Of a DNA stretch of 6,291 bases, positions 1 to 6,291 are shown in pieces. A model generated the notes under the pieces. The model ran no database searches and had not been told where the DNA came from. It was given only the letters and a program-made list of their open reading frames with translations. Each line of letters starts with the position of its first letter. The stretch's first letter is position 1. The stretch comes from a virus, in the IMG/VR virus record IMGVR_UViG_3300020026_000020, positions 1-6,291 of that record. One strand, given 5' to 3'. Made by a program: the position numbers and the translations under genes.

Positions 1-112
1 GAGGAAAGAGATTTGATTCTGTAAATCCAATGGAATGGAAGGATTTAGGTCGCACCACTTTTGGCATTTGAGTATAAAAGTCGGGTAAAGCGACAAAACT
101 ATTAACATACGA
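1..112. repeat. Terminal direct repeat, left copy. It is identical to 6180..6291, which is the assembly overlap signature of a circular 6179-nt replicon.
   Basis: Base-by-base comparison: 1..112 (gaggaaagagatttgattctg...ttaacatacga) equals 6180..6291 with no mismatch I could see. The repeat lies inside an uninterrupted reading frame that stays in frame across the junction. Confidence 0.95.
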
Positions 113-850
113 CGCAACATACGGAGCTGCGAATCCTCTCGAGAGTGATGCATCACAACGTCCGTAAGACCAAGCCTTAGATACATTTTCAAGAACAGTC
201 TGCGAGAATCGGTCGGAATTGGAAAACAATAACAAATGCCAATGCGGGCGGAAACTGGTAGGGCCGTATTCTGATACAGCGTAGTAACGTAATTTTTCAT
301 CCGGGTAATAACTTCTTAAACGTTTCAAAAACAAATCCAGGTCACGATTACAAACATAAGGAATCCTGTTGGGAACATTATGCTTAATCTTTCCAAGAAT
401 AGACAAAAGCTCCTCAGGTTTCATGGCATAAGTAAACCGAACTTCAGGGTCTTTGAAAGTACGTTCGACGGTAGAATTCTTCAACTGAACAGAAGAGGAA
501 CGAGGAATGCTGCGAAAACCAAACAAATAAGTATTAGGGTCACCAGCATCCAAGTCATTAATATTGGGAACACAGGGTACATCCGCAATATCATCCGTAC
601 AAGTTTCAATAATCGAAACCTCCAAAGTAGGAAGGAAGCAAGGAGCATAAGTAAGAGTAACAAAATAAGCATAACGGAATTGAGCAGAATAAGTAGTAAG
701 TAAGTTTGTTTGAATTCCGGAACGACGAAGAATACAAGAAGGACAAGAGCCACAAGACACAAGAACAGGCTCGTGTGTATACTTATTAACAACCGTACGA
801 GGGTGTTGACAACGAGTCACTAGCTTATTCTGCAATTCCTTAGTAATCAT
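1..850 (-). CDS. VP4: Replication initiation protein VP4 (HUH rolling-circle endonuclease), N-terminal part. The ORF runs off the left window edge and continues at 6179 on the circle. Full gene = complement(join 850..1, 6179..5335), 564 aa.
   Basis: Hand translation of the minus strand from ATG 850..848 gives MITKELQNKLVTRCQHPRTVVNKYTHEPVLVSCGSCPSCILRRSGIQTNLLTTYSAQFRYAYFVTLTYAP...RYYAVSEYGPTSFRPHWHLLLFSNS...RGFAAPYVASYVNSFVALPDFYTQMPKVVRPKS, with no stop down to position 1. An in-frame stop (856..854) lies just upstream of the ATG. Motifs found: N-terminal CxHP...CGSCPSC (754..734), RCR motif 1 FVTLTY (664..647), HUH motif HWH (244..236), and the catalytic Tyr pair YVASYVN (121..107; compare phiX174 gpA YVAKYVNK). 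The Met of the tracked ORF 5335..6246 (6246, equivalent to 67) is in frame, 261 codons downstream. Confidence 0.92.
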   Translation of the reverse strand, partial: MITKELQNKLVTRCQHPRTVVNKYTHEPVLVSCGSCPSCILRRSGIQTNLLTTYSAQFRYAYFVTLTYAPCFLPTLEVSIIETCTDDIADVPCVPNINDLDAGDPNTYLFGFRSIPRSSSVQLKNSTVERTFKDPEVRFTYAMKPEELLSILGKIKHNVPNRIPYVCNRDLDLFLKRLRSYYPDEKLRYYAVSEYGPTSFRPHWHLLLFSNSDRFSQTVLENVSKAWSYGRCDASLSRGFAAPYVASYVNSFVALPDFYTQMPKVVRPKSFHSIGFTESNLFP

Positions 851-1158: not shown

Positions 1159-1248
1159 TTACGAAAAAATTTGGGCAATAGACGTAAGAAGACTGACAGC
1201 AGCTGCAATAATAGCAGACCAGATTTTAGATTTAGTTTCACTTTTCAT
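1159..1248 (-). CDS. Small single-pass membrane protein (29 aa, MKSETKSKIWSAIIAAAVSLLTSIAQIFS). Holin-like candidate. The alternative upstream start at 1347 would give the tracked 62-aa, two-helix version.
   Basis: A charged N-terminus is followed by a ~20-residue hydrophobic helix. Stop TAA at 1161..1159 lies 3 nt before the M15 peptidase ATG (TAAGTCATG). The region upstream of Met34 is F/L/I-rich, as expected for a spurious frame on a T-rich strand, and it fully overlaps ORF 1238..1435, so I prefer the internal ATG. Confidence 0.4.
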   Translation of the reverse strand: MKSETKSKIWSAIIAAAVSLLTSIAQIFS

Positions 1249-1435
1249 CAGGAATTGCTTTAAAGGTTGAACAATGAGAAATGATAAGAACACAATCCGG
1301 ACGAAGATTTGAAGAAACAAATGCAGAAACTTCGTCAACGGGTACAAGAACAGTTTCGTTCTGATTAGGATTTACCTTTGACTGGATAGAACACAGATAA
1401 TACTTTTCCATAAAAATAAAAGTTAAATTAGACAT
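1238..1435 (-). CDS. Hypothetical small protein (65 aa from ATG 1435; 57 aa if from ATG 1411).
   Basis: MSNLTFIFMEKYYLCSIQSKVNPNQNETVLVPVDEVSAFVSSNLRPDCVLIISHCSTFKAIPDEK has a balanced, non-repetitive composition. ATG 1435 is the first ATG downstream of the candidate promoter. The 3' end overlaps ATG 1248 of the next ORF by 11 nt. I recognise no family. Confidence 0.4.
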   Translation of the reverse strand: MSNLTFIFMEKYYLCSIQSKVNPNQNETVLVPVDEVSAFVSSNLRPDCVLIISHCSTFKAIPDEK

Positions 1436-1452
1436 TGTTTTTAAAGACAGAG

Positions 1453-1485
1453 CAAAGATATAAATAAATACTTGAAAAAAACAAA
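1453..1485 (-). promoter_or_regulatory. Candidate Bacteroidota-type promoter (-33 TTTG / -7 TAnnTTTG) on the gene strand.
   Basis: The minus strand reads TTTG (1485..1482), then 21 nt, then TATCTTTG (1460..1453). This sits in a ~21% GC stretch (hand count over 1381..1520) directly upstream of the first ORF of the gene train. Confidence 0.4.
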
Positions 1486-1545
1486 TGTCAGCATAAAATA
1501 TTAACATTAATAAACAAAAGCTATGTGGGTGGCAGGCTGGTCTGT

Positions 1546-1617
1546 GAGTTTGCGTATATAAGACAAGGGGAGGAACTGAAAGCTATGAGGTAAATAGCTT
1601 TCCCTTCGGGCAAACTC
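1546..1617. repeat. Nested inverted repeats forming a two-level stem structure.
   Basis: GAGTTTGC (1546..1553) pairs perfectly with GCAAACTC (1610..1617). That helix encloses GAAAGCTA (1578..1585) / TAGCTTTC (1595..1602), which has a 9-nt loop. CCCTTCGGG follows at 1602..1610. Confidence 0.8.
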
Positions 1618-1824
1618 GTGTAGGCTTCGTCAATTTATATTTTAGGTGTTTAGCGGCGACGGAAGAGAAGAGATTAGAGGAAGATTGTTTACGCGTTGCA
1701 AGCGTCAAGCTTTGAGGAAGGCAGTACTATAGCCTGACGGCTCTGATTCCAGTCGACGGGGTCTCCCGGAATTCAGGGAGGTGTATAACCACGCTACGCG
1801 CGGTTGCCGGAAGTTACTCCAAGC

Positions 1825-1857
1825 AAAAAAACCCGGCGCGTATCACTACGAACCGGG
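1825..1857 (-). terminator. Rho-independent terminator downstream of VP2.
   Basis: The minus strand reads CCCGG-TT-CGTA-GTGA-TACG-CG-CCGGG followed by TTTTTTT (1831..1825). This is a GC stem with an inner 4-bp stem capped by a GNRA-type GUGA loop, then a U7 tract. It starts 24 nt after the VP2 stop codon (1883..1881). Confidence 0.7.
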
Positions 1858-1880
1858 AAAAACACGACAAACAAAAGTTA

Positions 1881-5334: not shown

Positions 5335-6291
5335 CTAAGAAAAAATACCAAACAAATCATTAGCCTTCTTGTGCTTGACCTTATCCCGACATTTCATCAA
5401 TGAAGCGGCAGCCAAACGACGAACAAGAGGTAATTCATGGTAAGGTTTTTCCTTATTATCAGGAGGCCTGTTATAACGGAAGGAATAGTTACGAAGCTCA
5501 AAGTCTACCAAATCCTTGTCATTGGCATCTTCCAAGGTTTGATAGAAATCTACAAGACGGTTGTAATCATAACGATTCCAAAAATTAACTATCTTCTCGG
5601 AGATAATACACAAGAACCTGTCTCGTCCAAAGAGTTCTCCTCCAGGAGTGCCGCTGGACCAGAAGAGTTCTGAACATCCGTCTGTTGAATATGTCCAAAC
5701 AAATTTCGCAATTCTGAGAAAAAAGCGGTATACGCGGGAGAGACGATGAGTAAATTCCAAATCAACACCATCGTACAAACGACATTCAGAAAGAATGAGA
5801 ATATCACTATACGGTAAACGGTCTTTAGGTGCAAAAATATTTTGCTCGTCATTTCTTTTTCCATAATTATCTATATAATTTAAATACTGTTTACAAAAAG
5901 ACAAAATACTCTGTTTAGATGGAGCATGCTCGTTAAAAGGGTCACAAGTTAAATCTGCACATCCGCTACGAATGACTCGCCCGGGCGCAGTGAACGCAGA
6001 ATGTAATAATTGGTAAACACTCGATGGAAGTTTACGAATAGGGTCCGAAAATCGGGGGAATAATCGAAGGAGATACGGCCAAGTAGGTTTAATTGTACGA
6101 AAACGTTCATTGCACTTAACGCGGACTCCATCAAGGCACTTATCGGTAACCTTATCAATTTCGGCAATTCGTACCTTTCGAGGAAAGAGATTTGATTCTG
6201 TAAATCCAATGGAATGGAAGGATTTAGGTCGCACCACTTTTGGCATTTGAGTATAAAAGTCGGGTAAAGCGACAAAACTATTAACATACGA
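5335..6291 (-). CDS. VP4: VP4, C-terminal part. This is tracked ORF 5335..6246 plus an in-frame open extension to the right window edge. 6180..6291 duplicates 1..112.
   Basis: The frame stays open from 6246 up to 6291 (15 codons, ...APYVASYVNSFVALPDFYTQ-MPKVV). Stop TAG at 5337..5335. The junction reads ...NLFP|RKVRIAEIDKV, matching the tracked protein. Confidence 0.9.
   Translation of the reverse strand, partial: SYVNSFVALPDFYTQMPKVVRPKSFHSIGFTESNLFPRKVRIAEIDKVTDKCLDGVRVKCNERFRTIKPTWPYLLRLFPRFSDPIRKLPSSVYQLLHSAFTAPGRVIRSGCADLTCDPFNEHAPSKQSILSFCKQYLNYIDNYGKRNDEQNIFAPKDRLPYSDILILSECRLYDGVDLEFTHRLSRVYRFFLRIAKFVWTYSTDGCSELFWSSGTPGGELFGRDRFLCIISEKIVNFWNRYDYNRLVDFYQTLEDANDKDLVDFELRNYSFRYNRPPDNKEKPYHELPLVRRLAAASLMKCRDKVKHKKANDLFGIFS
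6180..6291. repeat. Terminal direct repeat, right copy (identical to 1..112).
   Basis: Same comparison as the left copy. The offset is 6179 nt. Confidence 0.95.

Follow-up and report, generated by a model that had tools for sequence, protein, structure and literature searches.

A hairpin-rich intergenic cassette exchanged among gut microviruses is a candidate complementary-strand origin

Introduction

Why would a 6-kb phage with overlapping genes keep several hundred nucleotides free of them? The question is raised by a stretch of viral DNA of 6,291 nucleotides, here called the window (IMG/VR record IMGVR_UViG_3300020026_000020), in which a GC-rich island separates the structural genes from a train of small genes. 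An original prediction, made from the letters alone, proposed that this island may act as DNA outside mRNA and listed what it might be: a priming origin as in G4 and phiX174, a packaging or Rep-recognition site, an attachment site for prophage integration, or an independent structured RNA. In the literature we found no description of such an RNA or DNA element in gut microviruses. Here we analyze the composition, structure, distribution and strand orientation of the island and weigh what it may do. Coordinates are those of the window throughout, unless another genome is named.

Results

A large non-coding island in a compact genome

Positions 1-112 of the window are found again at 6180-6291, a 112-nt terminal redundancy in keeping with a circular microvirus genome, here 6179 nt long. 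At 87% identity across the full genome, Dulem virus 236 is one of its nearest records, the others being Dulem virus 257 and two bajarodmic viruses; all four come from animal faeces. All long ORFs in the ORF listing lie on the - strand, where the replication protein (Rep), major capsid, scaffold and pilot genes are followed by the island, a promoter and the small-gene train. The Rep ORF crosses the window ends (850..1, then 6179..5335) and the ORF list therefore shows only part of it; in the relative Dulem virus 236, Rep is annotated as 568 aa. Ahead of Rep lies a 102-aa gene (847-1155, - strand), which we take to be the one that carries the label 'peptidase' in related GenBank records.

The listing also agrees with the original prediction that gene junctions elsewhere are overlaps or gaps of 3-36 nt, and a check of the sequence found the terminator-like hairpin and the promoter on either side of the island where they had been placed. 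The region is organized as follows.

1824..1858, - strand: terminator-like hairpin CCCGG...CCGGG (1857..1832), then T7 (1831..1825)
1645..1822, - strand: module B, a conserved hairpin string, delimited by blastn, pattern search and covariation test
1634..1644, no strand assigned: AT-rich spacer separating modules A and B, from the sequence
1534..1633, - strand: module A, known in 50 distinct sequences
1486..1520, no strand assigned: AT-rich block between promoter and module A, conserved among relatives
1453..1485, - strand: Bacteroidetes-type promoter of the small-gene train (TTTG 1485..1482, 21 nt, TAtcTTTG 1460..1453)

The terminator-like hairpin, with an inner stem-loop CGTA-GTGA-TACG, marks where the capsid/pilot gene train ends and bounds the island on the module B side; it is kept in relatives. 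It was unreported by a consensus terminator scan, which permits loops of 3-8 nt, the loop here being 16 nt. The promoter, which we assign to the Bacteroidetes type by its consensus, is conserved in 43 relatives, and the gene train behind it begins at the ATG at 1411..1409. An inverted repeat, GACATTGTTTTT / AAAACAAATGTC, lies on either side of the -7 box (1431-1442 and 1478-1489), its outer arm overlapping the -33 TTTG; it is kept in some relatives only and might serve as an operator or, when the DNA is single-stranded, fold into a hairpin. The AT-rich block at 1486-1520 bears a weak likeness to the phiX174 origin core or dif.

The jump in GC content is real, at 47.7% for the island (1508-1880, 373 nt) and 18.8% for its AT-rich neighbour (1412-1507), close to the ~50% and ~21% first estimated; the whole genome has 40.0%. 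A codon count bore out that the island is free of ORFs and has no ATG on the - strand, with 0 found against 4.8 expected from its own composition and 0 reached in 0.4% of 2000 shuffles. There are at least two stop codons per frame on both strands, and the longest ORFs, with TTG or GTG starts, reach 41 aa. A coding role is ruled out by one-base indels among the aligned relatives. The non-coding share had been put at ~6% of the genome; the large gap stands, and its extent is revised to 1412-1880 (469 nt, 7.6%). This is because relatives annotate, in place of the 89-aa ORF at 1238..1507, a gene of ~57 aa that begins at the ATG equivalent to 1411, so that the non-coding stretch reaches 1412; judging by this alignment of starts, the first ATG of the 89-aa ORF is probably unused. 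Nor is the island unconserved filler, as its two modules recur in more than 80 ~6-kb gut microvirus contigs.

Covarying hairpins on the gene-sense strand

The island is made of two modules, A (1534-1633) and B (1645-1822). In some relatives a third hairpin module of ~150 nt, A', sits in the spacer between them, and some have an insertion after module B. The predicted elements within the modules are these.

1787..1805, - strand: hairpin P5, AACCGCGC-GTA-GCGTGGTT, 8 bp including an invariant G.T wobble, with the C-GNA-G triloop GCGTAGC
1743..1776, - strand: hairpin P4, CTGAATTCCGG...CTGGAATCAG, ~10 bp, tip variable
1731..1742, - strand: hairpin P3, AGCC-GTCA-GGCT, 4/4 pairs changed on both sides
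1691..1705, - strand: hairpin P2*, ACGC-TTGCAAC-GCGT, weakly supported
1659..1687, - strand: pyrimidine-rich tract CAATCTTCCTCTAATCTCTTCTCTTCCGT, unpaired in the window genome
1623-1631, - strand: module A mini-hairpin GAC-GAA-GCC
1610-1617 with 1546-1553, - strand: module A long-range helix GAGTTTGC/GCAAACTC
1602-1610, - strand: module A mini-hairpin CCC-GAA-GGG
1579-1601, - strand: module A hairpin AAAGCTAT-TTACCTC-ATAGCTTT

Folded on its own, the island of the window is modestly more stable than shuffled sequence (as DNA, z = -2.2 for the - strand and -2.1 for the + strand; as RNA, z = -2.8 for the - strand), and the case for a structure therefore rests on comparative data. The search for compensatory changes that the original prediction had called for was carried out on 14 diverse sequences: 11 of 26 pairs changed on both sides, a number reached in 0 of 500 shuffles. 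When these sequences were read as the - strand, 93.7% of cells were paired, compared with 84.3% after shuffling and 24-38% when the partners were slid.

The wobble pairs discriminate between the strands, with 160 cells that fit the - strand against 9 that fit the + strand. In P5, which has two pairs changed on both sides, the wobble is G.T on the - strand in 53/53 sequences, the + strand equivalent being an A.C mismatch. P4 has both-side changes at five pairs and, at one position, G.T in all but one of 14 sequences, the exception having G-C; its wobble cells fit the - strand 58 times and the + strand once, and the stem extends to 10 bp on the - strand. For P2*, 0 pairs changed on both sides, the wobble cells number 42 (-) against 3 (+), and 76.8% of cells are paired. 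The 1623-1631 hairpin of the window itself has its wobble on the + strand. Taken over all aligned sequences, these wobbles and the loop sequences described next show that the strand predicted to fold is the gene-sense, T-rich - strand.

The loops follow a common pattern. Among 53 sequences, the P5 loop is GTA in 35, GAA in 12, GCA in 4 and GGA in 1, and thus GNA in 52. P3 carries GTTA (23), GAA (9), GTCA (7), GCCA (4) or GTA (3) on the - strand, appearing in relatives as a CC-GAA-GG triloop or with other GNNA loops; its loop is GNA or GNNA in ~90% of the 53. In module A, the CCC/GGG hairpin has both-side changes at 2/3 pairs, in triloop register, and GNA loops in 48 of 50 sequences (GAA 33, GTA 8, GGA 7), whereas the stem at 1623-1631 has pairs that vary GC/AT and CG/TA around a loop that is GAA in 49/50. 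The inner hairpin of A' has GAA, GGA or GTA. Several stems in the modules are only 3 bp long, and in one relative (L022) a covarying pair sets the triloop register of the hairpin loop. At the pyrimidine-rich tract most relatives have a GGAGAG/CTCTCC hairpin.

Exchange of modules among unrelated phages

We then considered how the island is distributed. A blastn search matched 18 phage records, some of which have little else in common with the window; with more distant microviruses the island is 74-77% identical where 20-31% of the genome aligns. A pattern built from the most conserved hairpin turned up in 46 viral contigs and in 83 from metagenomes, almost all of which are ~6-kb gut microviruses. 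The same pattern gave 26 matches, in unrelated taxa, among 185,579 bacterial and archaeal genomes, where we estimate ~47 by chance, and the host-derived match that the original prediction thought worth looking for is therefore at chance level only. A capsid search in genomes returned three tiny contigs only, and a blastn search of plasmids gave no relevant match.

One case of exchange is L040, which shares with L029 and L048 a single stretch of nucleotide sequence, the 310 nt of A'+B, at 90-92% identity. The Reps of L040 and mar45 align with that of the window at 22-29% identity, over short stretches only, and module B is absent from 66/66 relatives of the mar45 capsid. Since module B is common to phages with barely alignable Reps, it moves horizontally and independently of the phage's own Rep, and a Rep-recognition site, one of the original options, is unlikely. 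Module B is, on these alignments, a unit swapped among otherwise unrelated microviruses.

Two further observations concern these genomes. A 43-nt block over P5 (1780-1822; L010 801-843) is 100% identical in Dulem virus 262, whose module B (65 bits to the module B model) has diverged strongly elsewhere. Four metagenome contigs longer than one genome, L160 (4051-4246, 6883-7082), L180, L191 and L192, consist of two partial or divergent microvirus genomes joined, with breakpoints inside the capsid gene; from these joins, they look like assembly chimeras rather than prophages.

The fold follows the T-rich strand

In most genomes the strand of the fold is the gene strand. In seven (L040, mar45, mar40, mar49, L187, L206 and L231) the fold is opposite to the genes. 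It is nonetheless on the T-rich strand in 83/83 genomes (49/49 and 34/34), the seven inverted ones included. Window-type genomes have 57-69% T on the coding strand at fourfold-degenerate sites, compared with 61% in phiX174, and SpV4 and Chp2, like phiX174 known positive-sense microviruses, have a T-rich coding strand at these sites too. The inverted genomes have 42-63% A at them, L040 being a near-exact mirror of the window type, and the coding strand is A-rich in 66/66 relatives of the mar45 capsid. L040, L087-L089 and L090-L155 form a clade of gut microviruses of 5.2-6.1 kb with ~60% A at fourfold-degenerate coding-strand sites, mirroring the T-rich phiX174 (~60% T), SpV4, Chp2 and window type; reversed virion polarity is one possible cause.

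T-richness marks the strand with a single-stranded phase in known single-stranded-DNA phages, and we infer that the T-rich strand is the packaged one. If T-richness does mark the strand that spends time single-stranded, then the element is always on that strand. Because the fold follows the T-rich strand and not the genes, it is unlike a cis element of mRNA. The proposal of a DNA-level element outside mRNA is in this way partly supported, by the covarying structure and by the folding of the T-rich, gene-sense strand.

A bolder reading is that the island marks the packaged strand, and that this strand is antisense to all genes in the seven inverted genomes and likewise in the mar45 clade of at least 66 contigs, which would make theirs the first negative-sense virions in Microviridae. 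We offer this tentatively, as a possibility to be taken seriously that falls somewhat short of being probable. We know of no precedent for negative-sense polarity in Microviridae, and a literature search on negative-sense microviruses found nothing relevant. Genome-wide, C-GNA-G hairpins in the mar45 clade have no strand bias (74 vs 98), and the intergenic regions of 25 mar45-clade genomes yielded no supported helix, so the case for reversed polarity in that clade draws on base composition and the orientation of module B only.

Integration at a dif-like site beside the island

In L219 (1672-8199) a Bacteroides chromosome carries a full relative of the window phage as a prophage, which makes this microvirus lineage temperate. 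A Usp-domain gene borders the prophage at one end, a TPR gene and gyrA at the other, and the encoded GyrA shares 98% identity with the Bacteroides muris protein. The same prophage junction is present in the 34.8-kb contig L203 at ~5950. The prophage ends are 30-nt direct repeats (attL 1672-1701, attR 8169-8199 of L219), located in the AT-rich flank, outside modules A and B, and in relatives the att site of the free phage also falls in this AT-rich stretch, at a distance of 70-90 nt from module A.

The att site is matched by the motif TATATTAAACATAATnnTGAT downstream of gyrA in 14 Bacteroides/Mediterranea genomes. The empty host site, TATATTAAACATAATnnTGAT(A/T)AT, lies downstream of gyrA and the TPR gene and is conserved while its flanks vary (L239 11510, L244 8882, L247 8950 and 11 other loci); it is dif-like, with the XerD-arm-like ATTAAACATAA. 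The integrated relative has no integrase gene, and the form of these sites suggests Xer-mediated integration of the relatives of the window phage. The dif-like att core occupies the place of the 1486-1520 block in one subgroup of relatives, and the window genome has a different AT block there. Thus, the idea of an attachment site was right for the region, in the AT-rich flank of relatives, and wrong for the GC-rich island.

Discussion

A putative origin for the complementary strand

Our combined findings favour, with moderate confidence, the reading that the island is a complementary-strand (minus-strand) origin, a single-strand initiation signal read by host enzymes. We favour it because it accounts jointly for the structure, its strand, the loop motif, the independence from Rep, the exchange as a cassette and the linkage to the T-rich strand. 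After infection, host SSB would coat the circular single-stranded genome, while modules A and B would fold into a row of hairpins, most of the covariation-supported ones capped by C-GNA-G or GNNA, that would resist melting by SSB. The folded, protein-free patch might then be recognised by a host enzyme, whether DnaG primase, the PriA primosome or RNA polymerase, and an RNA primer could be made in or beside it, perhaps on the adjoining pyrimidine-rich tract, from which host polymerase would convert the strand to the double-stranded replicative form. A signal read by host proteins would be swappable as a cassette among unrelated microviruses of one host, and an origin role would require the element to lie on the strand that becomes single-stranded.

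The loops bear on this. A 2026 review (PMC13037366) reports mini-hairpins of the type GCGNAGC/GCGNNAGC where primase starts on G4, St-1 and alpha3, as well as in RSF1010 ssiA (CCGAAGG) and the N4 hairpin promoters, and states that SSB binds them poorly. On the - strand of the window this motif is represented by GCGTAGC in P5, CCGAAGG at 1603-1609 and GNNA in P3, and GCGAAGC is a further form of it among the supported hairpins; the loops of the supported hairpins point, in our analysis, to a DNA element. Dulem virus 245, a genome without modules A and B, has a different GC-rich region of 393 nt at the same position (L322 3581-3973), with GGC-GAA-GCC twice, CCC-GTA-GGG, CTC-GAA-GAG and a pyrimidine tract, and a DNA fold z-score of -4.35. 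For other microviruses, minus-strand initiation has been proposed as the role of intergenic hairpins that are conserved and show compensatory changes (PMC9865509). Of the original options, a priming origin like those of G4 and phiX174 is thus the one favoured, by covariation, strand and GNA/GNNA loops, and it is from these that we infer priming itself.

Other readings of the island

The evidence on strand and structure also applies to another cis-acting element of the single-stranded viral DNA, one for rolling-circle termination or packaging or an accessory of Xer integration. CTX phage, with its hairpin attP, provides a precedent for a folded Xer-integration site, and the dif-like site 70-90 nt from module A in relatives belongs to a lineage that integrates in Bacteroides. 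However, the crossover repeats are outside the island, and most carriers of A and B have a different AT block instead of the att core. A signal dependent on Rep should co-vary with Rep, whereas the module is common to phages whose Reps barely align, and to our knowledge microviruses package via a Rep-procapsid complex, without a separate packaging hairpin. We therefore regard such an element as unlikely.

The island could also act as a structured RNA whose sense is that of the fold, made by terminator read-through or from a separate small RNA gene and acting on a host or phage factor. The covariation and the G.U pairs suit RNA equally, some of the loops resemble GNRA, the module is mobile and complete in itself, and the - strand RNA fold has z = -2.8. 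Nevertheless, the element lies downstream of a hairpin and T7, no conserved promoter was found travelling with the module, and the fold is antisense to every gene in seven genomes, yet tracks the T-rich strand. Stems of 3 bp with triloops, moreover, are poor as RNA and good as DNA mini-hairpins (PMC13037366). No Rfam family matched at E <=10 and none reached its gathering score, the sole match touching the region in the Rfam check being the ylbH leader (18.8 bits against a gathering score of 50), and a tRNA/tmRNA search found none. We hold an RNA of this kind to be improbable; the independent structured RNA among the original options is made less likely by the lack of an Rfam match and by orientation data that fit it poorly.

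That the modules are selfish mobile DNA, spreading without serving the phage, is very unlikely. Their distribution is patchy enough, with absence from 66 mar45 relatives and presence in unrelated genomes, but they invariably occupy the major intergenic region and one compositional strand, have neither terminal repeats nor a transposase gene, and keep their structure through compensatory changes across phages of divergent hosts; ~300 nt of ballast would also be unexpected in a 6-kb phage with gene overlaps.

Our initial reading, an antisense structured RNA from the + strand, was rejected and is now hardly credible, as its G.U pairs come from candidate helices (P1, P2a and the P5 base) that lack both-side changes while the wobbles of the covarying helices fit the - strand, its sigma-70-like promoter match (1472-1499, + strand) is one of a set no more numerous than chance expectation, and its UNCG-like loops were dropped as proof of RNA because the opposite strand reads them as GNA triloops, in the register set by the covarying pair of L022. 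Apart from the - strand Bacteroidetes-type promoter, no promoter on either strand of the island was found to be conserved.

Comparison with known initiation signals

A complementary-strand origin would be an element of a kind already known, from which the island is set apart by its larger size, its modularity and its horizontal exchange. G4-type origins span roughly 140 nt and have three hairpins. The oric regions of G4, St-1, alpha3 and phiK are likewise intergenic in microviruses and made of several hairpins, there on the viral strand and here on the one presumed to be viral, and have in common with the island the GCGNAGC/GCGNNAGC-type mini-hairpin loops, which in oric exclude SSB (PMC13037366). 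Unlike them, the island is ~300 nt long in two or three modules and belongs to phages of a Bacteroides host. In a phage-wide blastn search, which matched gut microviruses only, it showed no sequence similarity to G4-type oric. The primosome assembly site of phiX174 (the n'/PriA hairpin upstream of gene G) is an intergenic hairpin signal on the viral strand for starting the complementary strand (PMC9865509), the role proposed here for the island; it is a single hairpin, unlike the island, and a search of phiX174 with the module B model gave no match.

The single-strand origins of rolling-circle plasmids (sso) and ssiA and ssiB of RSF1010 are likewise structured, orientation-dependent and host-specific cassettes that, as with the island, are exchanged between replicons apart from the Rep/double-strand-origin module. 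In P5, the loop and 3' arm spell TAGCGT (1795-1800, - strand), which resembles the CS-6 element of ssoA; this TAGCGT is confined to the GTA-loop variants (35/53). The island has the CCGAAGG heptamer of ssiA (PMC13037366) as well, at 1603-1609, with further copies in A' and in the P3 hairpins of relatives.

Similar in kind are the intergenic hairpins of reekeekee- and roodoodoo-microviruses, which were predicted with DNA parameters, have compensatory substitutions and are proposed to act in minus-strand initiation (PMC9865509). They comprise one or two hairpins of 13-64 nt, smaller than the island, and horizontal exchange, loop motifs and strand tracking go unreported in the passages on them.

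Implications

Every microvirus must make its single strand duplex, and the signal for this is known for a few coliphages only. For the abundant Bacteroides microviruses in human and animal guts, the island is a testable candidate for an origin, with a design that can be recognised elsewhere: clusters of C-GNA-G mini-hairpins on the T-rich strand of the single large intergenic region. Its distribution indicates that unrelated phages trade origin-type signals as host-specific cassettes. Taken together, cassette orientation and base composition offer a predictor of the packaged strand that needs nothing beyond sequence, and by this predictor one common gut clade would seem to be an exception to the rule that the coding strand is the one in microvirus virions. 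If that negative-sense clade is real, then it would be the origin cassette, and not gene order, that sets which strand is packaged.
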